From an uncultured Ulvibacter sp. (GTDB lineage: Bacteria; Bacteroidota; Bacteroidia; Flavobacteriales; Flavobacteriaceae): a stretch of 64,000 bases of DNA. The position numbers were made by a program, and so were the translations under genes. The DNA lies in the NCBI GenBank assembly GCA_938041335.1, contig CALIAF010000005.1:25-64024 (forward strand). The letters are read 5' to 3'. The notes under the pieces are model-generated. The model worked only from the letters and a program-made list of their open reading frames with translations, was not told the origin of the DNA and ran no database searches. Below are positions 2,584 through 30,646 of the stretch, piece after piece. Position 1 is the stretch's first letter, and every line of letters starts with the position of its first letter.

Positions 2584-3042
2584 TTGAAAGAAAAAACAAT
2601 AGATTATATATTACGTAGCACTTGGATGGCGGTACAGAAAATGTACAATGAAGAAGCCGGCAGAAAAGGCAGTACGATGGCTACTGGTTTTGCACTGGTA
2701 AGTATCGATCCAGAAGAAGGTACGCCTTCTACCGCATTAGGCCCTAAAATGGGGATGGAAGCCACTTCCCTATCGCGTACCCTTAAAAAAATGGAAGAGC
2801 AAGGCTTAATCGTCCGCAAGCCCAACCCTAACGATGGTCGTGGCGTACTCATCCACCTCACGCCTTTTGGTGTGGAGATGCGCGAATTCTCTAAGAGCGT
2901 GGTCTTTAGTTTTGACGAGGCGGTAAAAGAGAACATTTCAGAAGAAGAAATAAGAATATTTAAAAAAGTTGCTGGGCAGATGATGGAGTTGATTAGTGAT
3001 AAGAAGATTTATAAGAATCAGGAATTAGGGATTAGGAACTAG
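2584..3042 (+). CDS. MarR-family transcriptional regulator of the fad operon
   Basis: wHTH motif TSLSRTLKKMEEQGLIVRKPNPNDGRGVLIHLTPFG; TTG start. Confidence 0.92.
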   Translation: MKEKTIDYILRSTWMAVQKMYNEEAGRKGSTMATGFALVSIDPEEGTPSTALGPKMGMEATSLSRTLKKMEEQGLIVRKPNPNDGRGVLIHLTPFGVEMREFSKSVVFSFDEAVKENISEEEIRIFKKVAGQMMELISDKKIYKNQELGIRN

Positions 3043-3047
3043 GGATT
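3020..3047 (+). repeat. Heptamer tract (AGGRAYT)x4 overlapping the marR 3' end
   Basis: AGGAATT AGGGATT AGGAACT AGGGATT; encodes the terminal ELGIRN. Confidence 0.8.
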
Positions 3048-3063
3048 AGTAAAAAGCAGAAAG

Positions 3064-3291
3064 AGATAAAATATTTCCTTCGGAAATAGGCTTGATTGAA
3101 GCACATTTCAGAAGAAAAAAAAATAGCTCAATTAGACGGCACCCTTTAGGGCCGGGGTGAGCACTAATAAAAAGTAGAAAGTATTAAGATAAAATATTTC
3201 CTTCGGAAATAGGCTTGATTGAAGCACATTTCAGAAGAGAAAAAGAATAAAAAATTAAAGTCCAAGTAGACGGCACCCTTTAGGGCCGGGG
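3064..3291. repeat. Tandem duplicated intergenic unit (52-bp and 25-bp identical blocks, each with a hairpin)
   Basis: 3064-3115 = 3187-3238; 3133-3157 = 3267-3291; hairpins TATTTCC-TTC-GGAAATA and CGGCACCCTTTAGGGCCG. Confidence 0.9.
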
Positions 3292-3326
3292 CAAGAAGAA
3301 TATAAAAACAATACATAATTAAGAAT

Positions 3327-5735
3327 ATGTCAAAACGAAGAATTAATAAAGTAGCCGTAATAGGTTCGGGAATTATGGGAAGCGGGATCGCTTGTCATTT
3401 TGCAAACATTGGCGTGGAGGTATTGCTCCTCGATATCATTCCACGTGAATTAAGCGATAAAGAAAAAGCGAAAGGCTTAACCCTAGAAGATAAAGTAGTG
3501 CGCAACCGTATGGTAAACGACGCATTAACGGCTTCTATAAAATCTAAGCCCGCTCCTTTATATAACACCGAGTTTGCAAAACGCATTACTACGGGGAACC
3601 TGACCGATGATATCGCGAAAGTAGGATCTGTAGATTGGATTATCGAGGTGGTCGTAGAGCGTCTTGATATTAAGCAGCAGGTTTTCGAAAACCTAGAAAA
3701 GCACAGAACACCAGGAACCTTGATTACATCAAACACCTCTGGGATTCCTATAAAATTTATGAGCGAAGGGCGTAGTGAAGATTTCCAGAAGCATTTCTGT
3801 GGAACGCACTTCTTTAACCCACCGCGTTATTTAAAATTATTTGAAATCATCCCTGGACCAAAAACAGCTCCTGAGGTTTTAGATTTCTTTAATAGCTATG
3901 GCGAACAGTTTTTAGGTAAGACCACCGTGGTCGCTAAAGACACGCCTGCCTTTATTGGTAACCGTGTTGGGATCTTCTCTATTATGAGTTTATTCCACGC
4001 CGTTAAAGAAATGGGATTAACCGTAGAAGAAGTAGACAAATTATCTGGACCGGTAATCGGTAGGCCTAAGTCGGCCACCTTTCGTACCGTAGATGTGGTA
4101 GGTTTGGATACTTTAGTACACGTAGCCAACGGGATTCGTGAAAACTGCCCGAAAGACGAGCGTGCTTCTTTATTTGAGCTGCCTGCATTCATCAATACGA
4201 TGATGGAGAACAAATGGCTAGGATCTAAAACAGGACAAGGTTTTTATAAGAAGACTAAAAATGCCGAGGGTAAGACCGAAATTCTAGGTCTTGACTTAGA
4301 CACCTTAGAATACAGAGCGGGTAAAAAAGCAAAGTTTGCCACATTAGAATTAACAAAAACCGTTGATAATGTAGCAGACCGCTTCCCTATCCTTGTTAAA
4401 GGAAAAGACAGAGCTGGTGAGTTTTATAGAAAGTCATTCGCTTCTTTATTTGCATACGTAACCAATCGTATTCCTGAAATATCTGACGAGTTGTACAAGA
4501 TTGATGATGCGATGAAAGCTGGTTTTGGTTGGCAACACGGGCCGTTCCAGATTTGGGATGCCATAGGCGTTGAAAAAGGAATCGAAATCATGAAAGCAGA
4601 AGGACTTGAGCCTGACGCTTGGGTGAACGATATGATCGCGAGTGGTGTGACTTCTTTTTACTCAGTAAAAGATGGCGCAACCTATTTCTACGACATTGCT
4701 AAAAAGGAACAAGTTAAAGTACCAGGACAAGATGCCTTTATCATTCTTGATAATGTACGTAAGACCACCGAAGTATTTAAAAACAGTGGTGTATCTGTAC
4801 AAGATTTGGGCGATGGGATCTTAAATGTAGAATTCCGCAGTAAAATGAACTCCATTGGAGGTGATGTGCTTGCAGGAATCAACAAAGCCATTGACTTAGC
4901 AGAAGATAAATATGACGGTTTAGTGATCGGAAACCAAGGCGCTAACTTCTCTGTTGGTGCAAACATAGGAATGATCTTTATGATGGCCGCAGAGCAAGAA
5001 TACGACGAACTAAACGCTGCTGTAAAGTATTTTCAAGATACGGTAATGCGTTTGCGCTACTCTTCTATCCCAACCGTAATGGCTCCTCACGGGATGACCT
5101 TAGGGGGTGGTTGTGAGTTGACATTACACGCAGATCGCGTGGTTGCCGCAGCAGAGAGTTATATAGGTCTGGTAGAATTTGGTGTCGGTGTGATTCCAGG
5201 TGGTGGTGGTTCTAAAGAAATGGCTTTACGTGCCAGTGATATGTTCCAAAAAGGAGATGTAGAGCTCAACGTATTACAAGAGCATTTCTTAACCATAGGT
5301 ATGGCAAAGGTTTCTACCTCTGCGCACGAAGCATACGACCTTGACATTTTAAAGCCAGGAAAAGATATCGTAGTCGTAAATACCAATCGCCAGATTGCAA
5401 CCGCGAAAGCCGTAGCAAGACAAATGGCAGATATGGGCTACACGAAACCAGCACCTAGAAACGATGTGAAAGTATTAGGAAAGCAAGCCCTAGGGATGTT
5501 CTTAGTAGGAACAGACTCCATGAACGCCAGTAAATACATAAGTGAGCACGATCAGAAAATCGCCAACAAACTAGCCTACGTAATGGCCGGTGGGGATTTA
5601 AGTGAACCACAACTGGTAAGCGAGCAATACTTGTTAGACCTAGAGCGCGAAGCATTCTTGAGCTTAACGGGAGAGCGTAAGACCTTGGAGCGACTTCAGC
5701 ATATGATACAGAAGGGGAAACCTTTGCGTAACTAG
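3327..5735 (+). CDS. fadN: 3-hydroxyacyl-CoA dehydrogenase / enoyl-CoA hydratase (FadN-like)
   Basis: GSGIMGSG Rossmann motif, SNTSG, HFFNPP, C-terminal crotonase GGGCE...GLVEFGVGVIPGGGG. Confidence 0.93.
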   Translation: MSKRRINKVAVIGSGIMGSGIACHFANIGVEVLLLDIIPRELSDKEKAKGLTLEDKVVRNRMVNDALTASIKSKPAPLYNTEFAKRITTGNLTDDIAKVGSVDWIIEVVVERLDIKQQVFENLEKHRTPGTLITSNTSGIPIKFMSEGRSEDFQKHFCGTHFFNPPRYLKLFEIIPGPKTAPEVLDFFNSYGEQFLGKTTVVAKDTPAFIGNRVGIFSIMSLFHAVKEMGLTVEEVDKLSGPVIGRPKSATFRTVDVVGLDTLVHVANGIRENCPKDERASLFELPAFINTMMENKWLGSKTGQGFYKKTKNAEGKTEILGLDLDTLEYRAGKKAKFATLELTKTVDNVADRFPILVKGKDRAGEFYRKSFASLFAYVTNRIPEISDELYKIDDAMKAGFGWQHGPFQIWDAIGVEKGIEIMKAEGLEPDAWVNDMIASGVTSFYSVKDGATYFYDIAKKEQVKVPGQDAFIILDNVRKTTEVFKNSGVSVQDLGDGILNVEFRSKMNSIGGDVLAGINKAIDLAEDKYDGLVIGNQGANFSVGANIGMIFMMAAEQEYDELNAAVKYFQDTVMRLRYSSIPTVMAPHGMTLGGGCELTLHADRVVAAAESYIGLVEFGVGVIPGGGGSKEMALRASDMFQKGDVELNVLQEHFLTIGMAKVSTSAHEAYDLDILKPGKDIVVVNTNRQIATAKAVARQMADMGYTKPAPRNDVKVLGKQALGMFLVGTDSMNASKYISEHDQKIANKLAYVMAGGDLSEPQLVSEQYLLDLEREAFLSLTGERKTLERLQHMIQKGKPLRN

Positions 5736-5743
5736 TTGTAGAG

Positions 5744-5793
5744 GACGTAGGACTTTTTTGCTTTACAGCAAAAATGACTTACGATGTACGACT
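5744..5793 (+). repeat. Opening GAC-heptamer tract upstream of the four-helix-bundle gene
   Basis: GACGTAG GAC ... GACTTAC GATGTAC GACT; 5776-5793 is reverse-complementary to 6178-6195 at 16/18 positions. Confidence 0.8.
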
Positions 5794-5813
5794 AAATTTT
5801 TAAGTGAAATAAT

Positions 5814-6179
5814 ATGGGAGCAAGACACAATTTTAGGAAACTGACTATTTGGAAAGAAGGGATAGAAATCGCTAAGGACACCTATGCTAACACCAAGCTT
5901 TTTCCTAAATCTGAAATGTACGGTTTAAGCAGTCAAATGCAACGCTGTGCTGTTTCAATCCCATCAAATATTGCTGAAGGAACATCACGTAATACAGATA
6001 AACACTTCAAACAATTTTTAGAAACCGCTTTAGGTTCTGCTTTCGAATGGGAAACACAATTAATAATTTCTTTTGAAATTGGATACATATCACAAGAAAC
6101 GTTCACACATTTAGAGAATAAAATACAGAGAATTCAAGGTATGATTACGAATTTTATTAATAATCTTCAAATCAAGTAG
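5814..6179 (+). CDS. Four-helix-bundle protein (23S rRNA IVS / bAvd-like family)
   Basis: HNFRKLTIWKEG...FPKSEMYGLSSQMQRCAVSIPSNIAEG...ALGSAFEWETQLIIS. Confidence 0.92.
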   Translation: MGARHNFRKLTIWKEGIEIAKDTYANTKLFPKSEMYGLSSQMQRCAVSIPSNIAEGTSRNTDKHFKQFLETALGSAFEWETQLIISFEIGYISQETFTHLENKIQRIQGMITNFINNLQIK

Positions 6180-6210
6180 TCGTAAATCGTACGTCGTACC
6201 GTCATAAGTC
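6178..6210 (-). repeat. Closing (inverted) GTC-heptamer tract
   Basis: AGTCGTAAATCGTACGTCGTACCGTCATAAGTC is the reverse complement of GACNTAC-type units. Confidence 0.85.
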
Positions 6211-6222
6211 AAAAATAAAATT

Positions 6223-7413
6223 ATGAAAACAGCATATATAGTAAAAGCATACAGAACTGCCGTAGGGAAAGCAGGAAGAGGAGGATTTCGTTTTAAAAGA
6301 GCCGATGAGCTTGCTGCGGAAACGATCCAACATTTAATGAAGGAGCTACCTAATTTAGATCCTAAACGAATTGATGATGTGATTGTGGGTAACGCAATGC
6401 CTGAAGGTTCGCAAGGATTAAACATGGCACGTCTCATCTCTTTAATGGGATTAGAGATTGTGGATGTTCCTGGAGTAACCGTTAACCGTTTCTGTTCTTC
6501 TGGACTAGAAACCATAGGTATGGCCGTAGCAAAAATACAAAGCGGAATGGCAGAGTGTATTCTTGCCGGTGGTGCAGAATCTATGTCTAGTGTACCAATG
6601 ACTGGTTTTAAACCAGAATTGAACTACGATATCGTAAAAGCAGGACACGAAGATTATTACTGGGGTATGGGAAATACCGCAGAAGCCGTAGCAGAACAAT
6701 TTAACGTAACGCGTGAAGAACAAGATCAGTTCGCTTATGAAAGCCATATTAAGGCCTTAGCAGCGATTGATAGTGATCGTTTTCAAGATCAGATTGTTCC
6801 TATTAATGTAGACGAGACGTTTATCAACGCTGCAGGTAAAAAAGAAACGAGAACCTACACGGTAACGAAAGACGAAGGGCCACGTAGAGGTTCTACCGTA
6901 GAAGCATTAGCAAGATTACGTCCTGTATTTGCTGCTAACGGAAGTGTGACTGCGGGTAACTCATCACAAACAAGTGATGGTGCTGCCTTTGTAATGGTGA
7001 TGAGTGAGGATATGGTAAAAGAGTTAAATCTGGAACCTATTGCAAGAATGGTAAGCTATGCGGCTATGGGTGTGGAACCTCGTATAATGGGAATTGGTCC
7101 TGTTGCTGCCGTGCCAAAAGCATTAAAGCAAGGTGGATTAAGCCTTAACGACGTAAAACTGATTGAATTAAACGAAGCCTTTGCTTCGCAGTCTGTTGCC
7201 GTAATTAGAGAGCTAGGCATCAACCAAGAAATCACAAACGTAAATGGAGGAGCGATCGCATTAGGTCACCCACTAGGATGTACAGGAGCAAAACTATCGG
7301 TACAGTTATTTGACGAGATGCGTAAGCGTAACATGCAAGGGCAACACGGAATGGTAACGATGTGTGTAGGTACCGGTCAAGGTGCTGCTGGAGTTTTTGA
7401 GTTCCTTAAATAA
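6223..7413 (+). CDS. fadA: Acetyl-CoA C-acyltransferase (thiolase)
   Basis: NRFCSSG catalytic Cys, NEAFASQ, GHPLGCTGA, MCVGTGQG. Confidence 0.95.
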   Translation: MKTAYIVKAYRTAVGKAGRGGFRFKRADELAAETIQHLMKELPNLDPKRIDDVIVGNAMPEGSQGLNMARLISLMGLEIVDVPGVTVNRFCSSGLETIGMAVAKIQSGMAECILAGGAESMSSVPMTGFKPELNYDIVKAGHEDYYWGMGNTAEAVAEQFNVTREEQDQFAYESHIKALAAIDSDRFQDQIVPINVDETFINAAGKKETRTYTVTKDEGPRRGSTVEALARLRPVFAANGSVTAGNSSQTSDGAAFVMVMSEDMVKELNLEPIARMVSYAAMGVEPRIMGIGPVAAVPKALKQGGLSLNDVKLIELNEAFASQSVAVIRELGINQEITNVNGGAIALGHPLGCTGAKLSVQLFDEMRKRNMQGQHGMVTMCVGTGQGAAGVFEFLK

Positions 7414-7417
7414 AAAG

Positions 7418-7527
7418 GACGACTTACGACGGTAGGACGTACGACATTAGGACATACGACGGTACGACTTACGACAGTAGGACTTAGGACAGTACGACTT
7501 AGGACAGTAGGACTTACGACGTACGAC
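7418..7527 (+). repeat. 110-bp opening GAC tract with alternating 7-mer/8-mer units (15-bp higher-order period)
   Basis: GACTTAC GACGGTAG GACGTAC GACATTAG GACATAC GACGGTAC GACTTAC GACAGTAG GACTTAG GACAGTAC GACTTAG GACAGTAG GACTTAC GACGTAC GAC. Confidence 0.95.
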
Positions 7528-7528
7528 T

Positions 7529-7600
7529 TTTAAACATTAAAAAGGTAAAATTCATAAAATCCAAAGTATGATATCAAAATTTATAAGTACTATTTCATAA
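7529..7600 (+). pseudogene. 3' remnant 1 of a four-helix-bundle gene
   Basis: Translates FKH*KGKIHKIQSMISKFISTIS*, aligning to FTHLENKIQRIQGMITNFINNLQ of 5814-6179. Confidence 0.75.
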
Positions 7601-7615
7601 AACGTCATTTTTTTG

Positions 7616-7661
7616 GTCGTAAGTCGTAAGTCGTTTCGTCGTATGTCGTATATCTTATGTC
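7616..7661 (-). repeat. Closing GTC tract after remnant 1
   Basis: GTCGTAAGTCGTAAGTCGTTTCGTCGTATGTCGTATATCTTATGTC. Confidence 0.9.
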
Positions 7662-7672
7662 ATTGACAATCA

Positions 7673-7783
7673 ATAATAGCTTTTGAAATAGTGTAGATTT
7701 CGGAAAAAACATTTAAACATTTAGAAGATAAAATTCATAAAATCCAAAGTATGATCTCAAAATTTATAAGTACTACTTCATAA
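7673..7783 (+). pseudogene. 3' remnant 2 of a four-helix-bundle gene
   Basis: Translates IIAFEIV*ISEKTFKHLEDKIHKIQSMISKFISTTS*, vs IISFEIGYISQETFTHLENKIQRIQGMITNFINNLQ of 5814-6179. Confidence 0.85.
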
Positions 7784-7799
7784 ATCAGTATCACTTTTG

Positions 7800-7832
7800 G
7801 TCGTAAGTCGTTTGTCGTTTCGTCTTATGTCG
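7800..7832 (-). repeat. Closing GTC tract after remnant 2
   Basis: GTCGTAAGTCGTTTGTCGTTTCGTCTTATGTCG followed by TTGACAAT, as after remnant 1. Confidence 0.85.
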
Positions 7833-7871
7833 TTGACAATTAATAAATACAATTAAAATAGTTAGATAATT

Positions 7872-9686
7872 ATGGACAATACATCCAATATAAGTGACAA
7901 AGACATCCTAAGAGGAGGTCAATTTTTAGTAAAAGAAACCGCTTGCGAAGATATTTTCACACAAGAAGATTTTACAGAAGAGCAAAAGATGATGAAAGAT
8001 GCGGTGATGGAATTTAATGATCGTGAAATCGTAGCACACAGAGATCGCTTTGAAGCTAAAGACTTTGCATTGACTGAAGAGGTAATGCGTAAAGCAGGTG
8101 AACTAGGATTTTTAAGCGTTGCCGTGCCAGAAGACTTGGGCGGACTAGGTATGGGCTTTGTCTCTACGGTATTAACATGTGACTATATCTCAAGTGGTAC
8201 GGGCTCCTTCTCTACTGCTTTTGGAGCACATACAGGAATTGGTACCATGCCAATTACTTTATATGGTAACGAAGAACAGAAACAAAAATACGTTCCTAAA
8301 TTAGCGAGCGGAGAATGGTTTGGTGCGTATTGCTTAACAGAGCCAGGTGCAGGTAGTGATGCCAATAGCGGTAAAACAAAAGCAGAATTAACAGAAGACG
8401 GGAAGCACTATTTGATCAATGGTCAAAAAATGTGGATCTCAAATGCAGGTTTTTGTACGATAATGATCGTATTTGCACGTATTGGAGATGATAAAAACAT
8501 TACCGGTTTTATCGTTGAGAACGATGCGAGTAATGGAATCACGATGGGTGATGAAGAACACAAATTAGGAATTAGAGCTTCTTCTACAAGACAGGTATTC
8601 TTTAACGATACAAAAGTATCTGTGGACAATATGTTAGCCGGTCGTGGTGAAGGATTTAAAATAGCGATGAATGCACTAAACGTAGGTCGTATTAAGTTGG
8701 CCGCAGCATGTTTAGATTCGCAACGTCGTGTGATTTCTGGCGCTGCAACCTATGCAAATGAGCGTATCCAGTTTAAAACGCCTATCGCGAGTTTTGGAGC
8801 GATCAAATTGAAGTTGGCAGAGATGACTGCTTCGGCGTACGCTGGCGAAAGTGCAACCTACAGAGCTGCAAAAAATATTGAAGACCGTATTAATATGCGT
8901 ATTGCTGCTGGTAACACACATCAAGAAGCAGAATTAAAAGGAGTTGAAGAGTATGCCATTGAGTGTTCTATCTTGAAGGTAGCTGTTTCAGAAGACATAC
9001 AAAACTGTGCAGATGAAGGCATCCAGATCTTTGGTGGGATGGGCTTCTCTGAAGACACCCCTATGGAAGCGGCTTGGAGAGATGCACGTATTGCGCGTAT
9101 CTATGAAGGTACCAACGAGATTAACCGTATGCTAGCGGTAGGAATGTTGGTAAAGAAAGCGATGAAAGGTCACGTTGATCTTTTAGGACCTGCACAAGCG
9201 GTTGCGACAGAGCTTACTTCTATCCCTTCTTTTGAAACGCCAGACTTTAGCGAACTTTTTGCTGAAGAAAAGGATATGATTAAGAAGTTGAAAAAAGTAT
9301 TCCTAATGGTGGCAGGTAGTGCAGCACAGAAATATGGAACAGAACTAGAAAAGCACCAACAGACGTTAATGGCTGCTGCAGATATCTTAATCGAGATCTA
9401 TATGGCAGAAAGTGCGATACTTAGAACAGAAAAGAATGCAAAGCGTTCTGGAGAAGATACACAAGAAGTACAGATTGCAATGTCTAAATTATACTTGTAT
9501 CACGCGGTTGATACCGTTTCTATTAAAGCGAAGGAGTCTATTATCTCTTTTGCTGAAGGTGATGAGCAACGTATGATGTTAATGGGACTTAAGCGTTTCA
9601 CAAAGTATCAGAATATGCCTAACATAGGTGCGATGCGTAAAACGATTGCAGAGAAAGTTTCTGCAGAAGGAAAGTATCCTTTCTAA
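7872..9686 (+). CDS. fadE: Acyl-CoA dehydrogenase
   Basis: CLTEPGAGSDA, GQKMWISNAG, QIFGGMGF, RIYEGTNEINR. Confidence 0.95.
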   Translation: MDNTSNISDKDILRGGQFLVKETACEDIFTQEDFTEEQKMMKDAVMEFNDREIVAHRDRFEAKDFALTEEVMRKAGELGFLSVAVPEDLGGLGMGFVSTVLTCDYISSGTGSFSTAFGAHTGIGTMPITLYGNEEQKQKYVPKLASGEWFGAYCLTEPGAGSDANSGKTKAELTEDGKHYLINGQKMWISNAGFCTIMIVFARIGDDKNITGFIVENDASNGITMGDEEHKLGIRASSTRQVFFNDTKVSVDNMLAGRGEGFKIAMNALNVGRIKLAAACLDSQRRVISGAATYANERIQFKTPIASFGAIKLKLAEMTASAYAGESATYRAAKNIEDRINMRIAAGNTHQEAELKGVEEYAIECSILKVAVSEDIQNCADEGIQIFGGMGFSEDTPMEAAWRDARIARIYEGTNEINRMLAVGMLVKKAMKGHVDLLGPAQAVATELTSIPSFETPDFSELFAEEKDMIKKLKKVFLMVAGSAAQKYGTELEKHQQTLMAAADILIEIYMAESAILRTEKNAKRSGEDTQEVQIAMSKLYLYHAVDTVSIKAKESIISFAEGDEQRMMLMGLKRFTKYQNMPNIGAMRKTIAEKVSAEGKYPF

Positions 9687-10043: not shown

Positions 10044-10130
10044 ATGAGAACTTTAAATACAGACCACTTAACAGAAAGAGTAACAACATCACATATCCAT
10101 ATTTGGAATTCAAAAAGACGTTACAGATAA
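10044..10130 (+). CDS. Micro-ORF 1, 28 aa, WNxKRRY family
   Basis: MRTLNTDHLTERVTTSHIHIWNSKRRYR; A-rich start context; paralogy with the next two ORFs. Confidence 0.75.
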   Translation: MRTLNTDHLTERVTTSHIHIWNSKRRYR

Positions 10131-10163
10131 ACTTAATTTTAATCAATCAAAAAACCAATCATT

Positions 10164-10253
10164 ATGAGAAATTCAAAATCAGATCAAATAATAGAGAGAT
10201 CAAATAATTCACATATTCAAATATGGAATTCAAAAAGAAGATACAGAAGCTAA
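10164..10253 (+). CDS. Micro-ORF 2, 29 aa, WNxKRRY family
   Basis: MRNSKSDQIIERSNNSHIQIWNSKRRYRS. Confidence 0.75.
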   Translation: MRNSKSDQIIERSNNSHIQIWNSKRRYRS

Positions 10254-10296
10254 ACTAAGGTTAGCCATTAATTACTAATCATAAAAACAACCCATC

Positions 10297-10383
10297 ATGA
10301 TCACATTAAACAGAAATCACTTTTCGGCAACAACACTATCAAAATCTTTTACTTGGAACCAAAAAAGAAGGTATTCTAACTAA
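10297..10383 (+). CDS. Micro-ORF 3, 28 aa, WNxKRRY family
   Basis: MITLNRNHFSATTLSKSFTWNQKRRYSN. Confidence 0.7.
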   Translation: MITLNRNHFSATTLSKSFTWNQKRRYSN

Positions 10384-10419
10384 GGAGGTTATTTATCAAT
10401 CAATCTTTAATCAAGCGCC

Positions 10420-10560: not shown

Positions 10561-10604
10561 AAAGTAAAAGCTGAATGTATCGAGATACATTCAGCTTTTA
10601 CTTT
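10561..10604. terminator. Perfect 21-bp-arm palindrome, probable bidirectional terminator
   Basis: AAAGTAAAAGCTGAATGTATC-GA-GATACATTCAGCTTTTACTTT between convergent transcription units. Confidence 0.7.
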
Positions 10605-10642
10605 TACTTTTACTTTTACTTTTACTTTTATTTTTACTTTTA
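10595..10642. repeat. Hexamer microsatellite (CTTTTA)x8
   Basis: Six perfect CTTTTA units, then TTTTTA and CTTTTA. Confidence 0.95.
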
Positions 10643-10655
10643 TTTTAAACCGGAG

Positions 10656-29949: not shown

Positions 29950-29963
29950 AGTTTTATTTTTTT

Positions 29964-30106
29964 AGAAGCAAGAGGAAAGACGGTTCCTGCGGAACTGAAA
30001 GAGGAAAGATTAAATGTAAAAAATCTTCTAATTCTTCTTATCTAATTCTTCATCAATTCTTTCTTCTTTCAATAAGCCAAGGGAAAGGTCTTTACTTCTT
30101 ACTTCT
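29964..30106 (-). repeat. GAAAGA-family self-complementary element, copy 1
   Basis: Purine arm 29964-30009 with hairpin GTTCC-TGC-GGAAC; pyrimidine arm 30057-30106. Confidence 0.85.
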
Positions 30107-30109
30107 CAT

Positions 30110-30466
30110 TTATTGTAATGTTTTCTGAAATCCGGCCGTCATTCTTTGCCATTCTTCTATTTGACATTCTAACTCTTGTAATTCTTTAATGGTAATATAA
30201 TTTTTATGTTGTGCAATTAATAATTGCATGTTTAATTCATAAGATGACCCCATAGCAATATCTATAAAATGAATAAAAGATTTTTCACTTCTAGCAGAGC
30301 CTTCTGCTATATTACTGGGTATAGAAACGGAACACCTACTAATTTGGGATGTAAGACTATATTGCTCTTTACTAGGGAAATTTTCTATTTTATCTGAAAC
30401 GACAAAAGCAATATTTAAAGCTTTTTGCCAAATTTTTAAATTTCTGAAATTGTGTTTTTTATTCAT
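30110..30466 (-). CDS. Four-helix-bundle protein (23S rRNA IVS / bAvd-like family), second copy
   Basis: HNFRNLKIWQKA...FPSKEQYSLTSQISRCSVSIPSNIAEG...AMGSSYEL. Confidence 0.92.
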   Translation of the reverse strand: MNKKHNFRNLKIWQKALNIAFVVSDKIENFPSKEQYSLTSQISRCSVSIPSNIAEGSARSEKSFIHFIDIAMGSSYELNMQLLIAQHKNYITIKELQELECQIEEWQRMTAGFQKTLQ

Positions 30467-30479
30467 AATTACTGTTTTT

Positions 30480-30639
30480 AGAAGAAAGAAGAAAGACCGT
30501 CCGCCCAGGCGGACTGAAAGAGGAAAGACTTAACTACTCCCAACTTATTGCTTATTCTAAAATCAATCTTTAATCAATATTATCCATTCTGTCTTTCTTC
30601 TTTCAATGAGCGAAGCGAATGGTCTTTCCTCTTACTTCT
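30480..30639 (-). repeat. GAAAGA-family self-complementary element, copy 2
   Basis: Arms 30480-30529 and 30591-30639; hairpin GTCCGCC-CA-GGCGGAC; insert GAGCGAAGCGAATG. Confidence 0.9.
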
Positions 30640-30646
30640 CCATTTT

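Follow-up and report, generated by a model that had tools for sequence, protein, structure and literature searches.

The stretch of DNA analysed here (the window) comprises 64,000 nucleotides (nt) of a contig from an uncultured Ulvibacter sp. (CALIAF010000005.1, positions 25 to 64,024 of the forward strand), a marine member of the Flavobacteriaceae whose thiolase shares 92% identity with the Patiriisocius marinus enzyme. In its fatty-acid oxidation operon the thiolase gene fadA and the acyl-CoA dehydrogenase gene acd are separated by 458 nt, a gap referred to below as spacer 2, the fadB-fadA gap being spacer 1. With a probability of roughly 80%, positions 7418-7869 within spacer 2 are the remains of one stem-enclosed cassette carrying a four-helix-bundle gene, which was truncated and tandemly duplicated in place. 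The original prediction for this interval, made from the letters alone, had described a 110-bp GAC tract, two decayed gene fragments and two GTC tracts and had read them as the outcome of repeated insertion. Its layout is right to within a few bases, and the features are the following:

6223-7413: thiolase gene fadA, stop codon at 7411-7413
7418-7527, plus strand: opening GAC tract, a 15-nt unit (GACNTASGACNNTAS) repeated about 7 times
7529-7600, plus strand: remnant 1, the final ~24 codons of a four-helix-bundle gene; internal TAA, own stop codon 7598-7600
7616-7661, plus strand: closing GTC tract 1, 7-nt units of the GTCGTAA type, from an inverted-repeat search
7655-7680, plus strand: junction between GTC tract 1 and gene codon ~77, which recurs at 7826-7846
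7662-7783, plus strand: remnant 2, codons ~78-119 of the spacer-2 gene; internal TAG, stop codon 7781-7783
7799-7832, plus strand: closing GTC tract 2, duplicating tract 1 except for 13 missing nt
7833-7869 (7826-7869 with the recurring junction), plus strand: incomplete third repeat period, TTGACAATTAATAA...TAGAT, with 2 nt left between it and the acd ATG
7872-9686: acyl-CoA dehydrogenase gene acd, ATG at 7872

As had been seen from the start, each remnant contains an internal stop, lacks the 5' part of the gene and keeps its 3' end together with a closing tract, and the translations hold as first given: remnant 1 reads FKH-stop-KGKIHKIQSMISKFISTIS-stop and remnant 2, from 7673, IIAFEIV-stop-ISEKTFKHLEDKIHKIQSMISKFISTTS-stop. 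The extent of 7673-7783 proposed for remnant 2 stands at its 3' end and has to be corrected at its start, where homology begins near 7662-7667. With ~24 and ~42 last codons and internal stops, neither remnant provides an open reading frame (ORF) for the four-helix protein, and both are pseudogene fragments; codons 1 to ~77 are absent from the window copy. The GAC tract is resolved by Tandem Repeats Finder into 7.3 copies of period 15 or 3.7 copies of period 30 with an 87% match, and TASGAC-N1/2-TASGAC patterns occur 9 and 6 times where none are expected from 100 shuffles. At 110 nt it has about three times the length found in the intact orthologue (37 nt in the related loci L081 and L084). A sigma-70-like TTGACA-18-AATAGT, present at the third period and at 7663, does not exceed chance.

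The remnants share far more than coding sequence. Positions 7531-7672 match 7690-7852 with 88% identity in an alignment of 121 columns that takes in coding sequence, stop codon, spacer and GTC tract (z = 43 relative to 300 dinucleotide-preserving shuffles, the control applied to nucleotide local alignments), and 7531-7869 as a whole is a tandem array of ~1.9 copies with a period of ~171-183 nt behind a single GAC tract. The fusion of GTC tract and codon ~77 occurs twice, at 7655 and 7826 (…TCTTATGTC[A/G]TTGACAAT[C/T]AATAA…), and the 44 nt that precede the acd start, the third partial period, align with 7655-7710 at 82% (z = 12). Because spacer, tract and junction are common to the copies, the array runs head-to-tail and only one GAC tract precedes it, the remnants most likely represent one locally duplicated cassette, and the repeated insertion of the original prediction is not supported. 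At the junction stands CTTATG, which is common to GTC tract units and to codons 76-77 of the intact orthologue and suggests, by its sequence, a microhomology-mediated rearrangement. The GAC tract itself has grown by duplication of 15/30-nt units through slippage. The motif TTGACAATNAATAA that follows each GTC tract was considered as an insertion target and rejected, as other cassettes lack it; it is this motif that gives rise to the sigma-70-like match.

The intact cassette protein encoded in spacer 1 of the window (gene 5814-6179, described below) recovers both remnants when searched against the whole window with tblastn, remnant 2 at E = 4e-8 and remnant 1 at E = 0.006. In nucleotides, remnant 2 agrees with this gene at 74% (z = 20) and remnant 1, within a stretch of 39 nt, at 77% (z = 5), while identity to the orthologous gene of L084 reaches 83% (z = 37) and 81% (z = 15), respectively. 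The alignments thus lie far above the shuffled controls by which the original prediction had proposed to be judged, and the remnants are fossils of a four-helix-bundle cassette class, homologous to a member of PF05635/TIGR02436. At 93% (68/73) they are closer to each other than either is to the intact window gene, and the derivation from another paralog that had been proposed on this ground is correct insofar as gene 5814-6179 is not the source. The source is the lineage resident in spacer 2. Among 120 close homologues of the intact spacer-1 gene, the protein closest to remnant 2 is P0052, with 91% identity to its residues 84-116 (33 aa) compared with only 62% to the window's own intact protein; remnant 1 is 82% identical to P0052 residues 97-118. 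P0052 is intact in four metagenome contigs of uncultured relatives (L081-L084), where its gene lies exactly between fadA and acd, flanked by GGACATACGATAAAACGACTTACAACATAAGACAGAC upstream and TCGTACGTCACACGTCGTGAAGTCGTAAAGCG downstream (GAC/GTC in L081/L084), so that the parent lineage still exists undamaged in relatives. The next-closest proteins, P0061, P0044 and P0053, all stem from genes in the fadA-acd spacer as well.

The nucleotide alignment (blastn) between L084 and the window continues unbroken from remnant 2 through the tract into acd. From this continuity and the position of the P0052 gene it follows that remnant 2 is the positional orthologue of the 3' end of the resident spacer-2 gene. 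The cassette, consisting of an opening GAC-repeat tract, a PF05635 gene of 119-121 codons and a closing GTC-repeat tract, is viewed as having long occupied the fadA-acd spacer in this part of the Flavobacteriaceae. Two scans of metagenomes, one for a degenerate pattern of the remnant and the other for a pattern of the GTC tract, gave 0 matches each.

The operon was compared across 80 species-representative genomes and 15 further loci (numbered with the prefix L). Its spacer lengths are trimodal, with empty spacers of ~3-30 nt, a class of ~65-190 nt and full cassettes of ~380-530 nt, the last being patchily distributed over many genera in spacer 1, spacer 2 or both. Most of 31 cassettes carry a tract before the gene and its complement after it, with L044 and L091 spacer 1 as exceptions. 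In 26 of 32 cassettes the tract upstream of the gene has the higher purine content, a modest difference (mean purine fraction 0.60 vs 0.49), and in 47 of 64 flanks autocorrelation is strongest at period 7. Spacers of ~60-200 nt are mostly gene-less, low-complexity hairpins, 32 of 54 having a fold z below -2. For spacer 2 the loci form a series from an intact gene (L081-L093) over a copy with one TAA (L094), the truncated and duplicated form of the window and a mere GAC/GTC-like hairpin (L005) to empty spacers of 10-30 nt in many genera.

Other decayed copies speak to the mode of truncation, for which the original prediction had considered RNA-templated insertion besides deletion between repeats. 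In L094 the spacer-2 copy is full-length with a single nonsense change from TAT to TAA at codon 77, and the spacer-1 copy of L056 is likewise full-length with one nonsense codon. L058 holds a decayed gene with a frameshift, L062 a 23-codon internal deletion with both ends kept, and L065 the first 9 codons fused to the C-terminal end; one more remnant that retains only the 3' end occurs in L063. Such a mixed spectrum favours ordinary mutation and deletion and disfavours RNA-templated 5' truncation. Retro-insertion should leave independent copies with variable 5' ends and a common 3' end and calls for a reverse transcriptase source; the window remnants are tandem duplicates that share a junction, and no reverse transcriptase was seen in the ORFs scanned. 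The fossil itself is a case of ordinary decay. The interior of the upstream hairpin of L095 was tried as another 3' remnant and dismissed (z <= 2.6, not significant).

Spacer content can differ strongly between close relatives, as it does between the window and the nearest genomes L001 and L003, and tract type tends to match between both spacers of one genome (L002, L003). A Tenacibaculum RNA-seq assembly ~98% identical to L013 (runs X14/X16) has 456 nt where L013 has a gene-less hairpin of 130 nt (L013 5183-5312), and the tract ends of this longer spacer are different (…AGTAAGATTAAAGAGCATAGAGA / CTATTTTCTCTTTTCTTAAAAC…); this difference represents a recent exchange of cassettes. At the level of the family, cassettes do insert into these spacers, replace one another and decay there. 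Two further spacer elements were observed in the comparison set. Spacer 1 of L091 (611-1651) contains a 140-aa ORF without Pfam match followed by a four-helix-bundle gene, both bracketed by TGTATAT / ATATACA tracts, one of which comprises ~120 nt of ACAATATACATTATACAAC repeats. The same operon spacers of Maribacter-like genomes harbour a family of ~135-nt hairpins of very high stability (CCCCTAACCCCCAAAGGGGGAAC ... GTTCCCCCTTTGGGGGTTAGGGG, with energies as low as -73 kcal/mol), located at L026 3857-3997, L053 3864-3997, in both spacers of L067 and in spacer 2 of L068, which looks like a separate element similar to MITEs (miniature inverted-repeat transposable elements).

Two intact cassettes lie elsewhere in the window, one of them in the same operon downstream of marR and fadB:

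2584-3042: marR, fatty-acid oxidation operon
3327-5735: fadB-like gene, fatty-acid oxidation operon
5736-6222, plus strand: intact sister cassette in the fadB-fadA spacer, with GAC units at 5743-5753 and 5775-5791, gene at 5814-6179 and GTC tract at 6180-6211
29960-30640, minus strand: second intact cassette, gene at 30110-30466, between a VWA-domain gene and an AAA-ATPase gene

The gene at 5814-6179 (121 aa) matches PF05635 ('23S rRNA-intervening sequence protein', E = 3e-38), TIGR02436 ('four helix bundle protein', E = 3e-36) and the solved pentameric protein XCC0516 (PDB 2gsc, E = 2e-20). Compared with L085, its ratio of nonsynonymous to synonymous divergence (dN/dS) is 0.04 and its dS is 0.48, vs 0.50 for the adjacent fadA; judged by these sequences, the gene is under strong purifying selection. 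The gene at 30110-30466 also belongs to PF05635 (Pfam E = 3e-31). Its cassette has a hairpin-gene-hairpin layout with a different tract family, GA-rich and CT-rich (GAGAAGTAAGAGGAAAGAC / GTCTTTCCTCTT), and outer arms (29964-29986 / 30617-30639) that are 87% complementary. No match to either intact window protein was obtained with the PADLOC defence models. Inside the spacer-1 GAC tract sits an A/T-rich mini-hairpin (window 5753-5775; L085 521-543), the pairing of which is kept by compensatory changes between TTTTTGC...GCAAAAA in the window and TTTTTACC...GGTAAAAA in L085; L095 has a similar mini-hairpin between GAC units.

Neighbour joining groups the genes of spacer 1 and those of spacer 2 into clades of their own, and the spacer-1 genes of the window and of L085 fall inside the spacer-2 clade, next to L081, L086, L090 and L091. 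The spacer-1 cassettes of the window and L085 also carry GAC/GTC tracts, and in L094 and L095 this gene type likewise occupies spacer 1, with a pseudogene or a short stub in spacer 2. A spacer-2-type cassette may thus have been copied into spacer 1, upon which the original spacer-2 copy would have become redundant and could have decayed in several lineages independently of one another, through microhomology or slippage events that repeats and hairpin-forming DNA would favour. Decay of the spacer-2 copy as the redundant one appears to be the most economical reading, and the region 7418-7869 would no longer be protein-coding.

At the level of RNA, the predicted fold of spacer 2 has -112.7 kcal/mol (z = -4.7) and contains two nested helices, in which 7441-7475 pairs with 7800-7833 in GTC tract 2 (31 bp) and 7481-7526 pairs with 7617-7661 in GTC tract 1 (36 bp). 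The spacer is probably transcribed with the operon and, according to the model, foldable into a nested, imperfect duplex of ~67 bp, which would be a substrate of RNase III by analogy with the ORF-bearing intervening sequences (IVS) of 23S rRNA. In the related Tenacibaculum, single RNA-seq contigs span fadB, cassette and fadA unbroken, and such cassettes are therefore co-transcribed with the operon; this is evidence at contig level, in which cleavage sites are not visible. The flanks of the 31 cassettes pair at a mean of -19.3 kcal/mol with their own partner and at -13.2 kcal/mol in cross pairs, the own pair being best in only 4 of 31. Since tract types are shared within gene clades, this comparison of own and cross pairs reflects co-inheritance of tract and gene and not clean covariation.

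Several observations weigh against a single resident cassette that was duplicated in place and folds as part of the operon messenger. Remnant 2 is 83% identical to the L081 gene where flanking genes of those lineages agree at ~75%, and although the stretch is short, the excess similarity in sequence could mean later acquisition and not strict vertical descent. The closest genomes, L001 and L003 (83-86% nucleotide identity over fadA and acd), are without any GAC/GTC cassette, so that loss or replacement must be invoked there. A two-event model of one duplication and one deletion does not by itself account for the third partial period, and the GAC tract is about as long as both GTC tracts combined, which is what a nested insertion followed by a GAC-GAC deletion would leave. 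As to RNA, a search for public RNA runs of the window organism returned none, the flanks of the 31 cassettes pair slightly better on the antisense strand (23/31, p = 0.003), and no sense-RNA-specific, G:U-tolerant signature of selection was detected in them. The G:U counts of the strand test were 155 vs 78, with the atypical layouts of L044 and L091 spacer 1 inflating the antisense excess, and the result was not taken as evidence for an antisense RNA.

The double pairing of the 110-nt GAC tract with both GTC tracts, one nested in the other, could also stem from a second cassette that inserted into the resident gene near codon 77, after which a GAC-GAC deletion removed the outer 5' part and a further deletion the inner one. 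GAC-GTC-gene-GTC layouts do occur, in L086 and L091. Nevertheless, such a course takes three events, would require one very recent source for both copies given the 93% identity of the remnants, and leaves unexplained why both GTC tracts are followed by the identical TTGACAATNAATAA..., a motif missing after the tracts of other cassettes; it is considered improbable. Two independent insertions of the same cassette class, each 5'-truncated and possibly made through an RNA intermediate, would account for fragments that both keep the 3' end and the closing tract, and they accord with the second 3'-only remnant in L063, with the turnover of spacer content between close genomes and with the homology of the protein family to Avd, the accessory protein of diversity-generating retroelements. 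They fail to explain why the copies have non-coding spacer, tract and junction in common and why, after just one opening tract, they stand head-to-tail and are followed by a third partial period, and the point stops, frameshift and internal deletions of decayed copies elsewhere tell against them, as do an Avd score of 26.8 against a cut-off of 80 and the lack of a reverse transcriptase among the operon genes and 10 other large ORFs scanned; we regard them as improbable too. Chance similarity in AT-rich DNA or a repeat assembly artefact, which a repetitive region of 26-35% G+C might lead one to suspect, has a negligible probability in view of shuffle z values of 15-43 and the tblastn E of 4e-8. 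Window positions 6963-8000 are moreover matched with zero differences by contigs of two public marine metagenome runs, both from one study, and the layout is therefore not an artefact of a single assembly.

An explanation of another kind places selection on the hairpin, as an element that processes or stabilises the mRNA between fadA and acd and outlasts the loss of the gene. The predominance of gene-less hairpins among operon spacers of 60-200 nt, the stems of the window that can still pair and the compensatory changes in the spacer-1 mini-hairpin fit this possibility, which we nonetheless hold to be doubtful: many genera have no spacer element at all, making the element dispensable, the flanks lack the G:U signature expected of the sense strand, and the several hairpin families may be unrelated mobile hairpins. 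Decay of one duplicated resident cassette is retained as the most likely account of 7418-7869.

The architecture of the cassette resembles that of the IVS of 23S rRNA known from Coxiella burnetii and Leptospira (S23p / 23S_rRNA_IVP). In Coxiella the IVS measures 428-444 nt, contains the S23p ORF within a 28-bp terminal inverted-repeat stem and is excised by RNase III; its ORF has been reported to be degenerating, and the ORF may decay while the stem stays (PMC4990558). The cassettes likewise are units of 430-490 nt with a PF05635 ORF between terminal inverted repeats, which in the predicted folds form a long stem around it, their distribution is sporadic, and the ORF can decay with retention of the stem. 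Unlike the IVS, they stand between protein genes of an mRNA operon, here between fadA and acd, and not in helix 25 or 45 of 23S rRNA; Rfam 15 yields no family, rRNA included, at gathering score in the window and none at E <= 5 in 5600-8000. Furthermore, their stems are built of tandem 7-nt units, and the intact genes are strongly constrained, unlike the ORF of the Coxiella IVS.

The PF05635-type family is homologous to Avd (PMC10053308), and the cassette proteins share this four-helix-bundle fold family, with weak matches to PF22296 (bAvd) and NF033474. The NF033474 score of 26.8 bits is well below the cut-off of 80, and the cassette genes are stand-alone in housekeeping operons, with fadB, fadA and acd or VWA and AAA-ATPase genes as neighbours. 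Judged by these features, they are no components of a diversity-generating retroelement, no reverse transcriptase having been seen in the part of the window's ORFs that was scanned and template and variable repeats not having been searched for. Repetitive extragenic palindromes and bacterial interspersed mosaic elements (REP/BIME) or MITE hairpins are also inverted repeats between co-directional genes, and gene-less forms as well as the sharing of a tract type by both spacers of a genome are reminiscent of them. In contrast to these, many copies of the cassette enclose a conserved protein gene, and the arms are variable 7-nt tracts without fixed sequence; neither a transposase nor a target-site duplication, the latter judged by eye, was identified at the cassettes. 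TAACTGA heptamers are intergenic direct repeats in Beggiatoaceae, Cyanobacteria and some Bacteroidetes, likewise made of 7-nt units in tandem and located in spacers shortly upstream of a start codon (PMC4679880). They differ in unit sequence, are direct only where the present tracts have complementary partners, and have no reported link to a four-helix-bundle gene (PMC4679880).

The PF05635 family has been known for ~30 years, recent surveys call it functionally uncharacterised, and a single search returned 7868 relatives of the intact gene at E < 1e-10; no description of the operon-spacer form of an ORF-in-stem cassette was found in the literature searched. The element class is an under-described variant of the IVS architecture that merits experimental attention, and the locus shows the ORF-in-long-stem design outside rRNA. 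A more far-reaching idea, offered as speculation to which we give little credence at present, is that tract-enclosed four-helix-bundle genes constitute an undescribed IVS-like class in mRNA operon spacers of Flavobacteriaceae, which copy between adjacent spacers, are swapped among close strains and leave gene-less hairpins behind, and whose Avd-like pentameric protein may have the tracts of its own cassette as target, with a part in RNA processing, autoregulation or mobility. If so, the fossils of spacer 2 would record one turnover event of such a system. The ~90 operon loci provide a natural series of intact, nonsense-bearing, truncated and duplicated, hairpin-only and empty spacers, in which intact copies show the same degree of constraint as the thiolase gene next to them, and stem cleavage, binding of the protein to the tracts and cassette movement become testable in cultivable Tenacibaculum, Winogradskyella and Maribacter. 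For annotation, the cassettes account for odd repeat-rich spacers and short PF05635 fragments in operons of Flavobacteriaceae.

Some further features were observed in the window. Directly upstream of the operon lies a gene for a protein with a SIR2-like domain (PF13289; 1344-2309, minus strand); SIR2-like domains are common in defence systems. Five GAATTAG units form a period-7 tract at 3015-3049 that extends over the final codons of the marR ORF and its stop, so that the marR reading frame appears to enter the tract, and no complementary partner tract was seen nearby. The marR-fadB gap (3043-3326) contains two direct copies of a ~125-nt unit, each with small hairpins (aaatatttccttcggaaatagg; gacggcaccctttagggccgggg). 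Downstream of acd, three tandem small ORFs of ~28-30 codons (~10045-10385, plus strand) share a conserved C-terminal W-N-(S/Q)-K-R-R-Y and could represent a family of small peptides or precursor peptides, and a perfect 21-bp hairpin at 10561-10604 leads directly into nine CTTTTA repeats (10595-10647).

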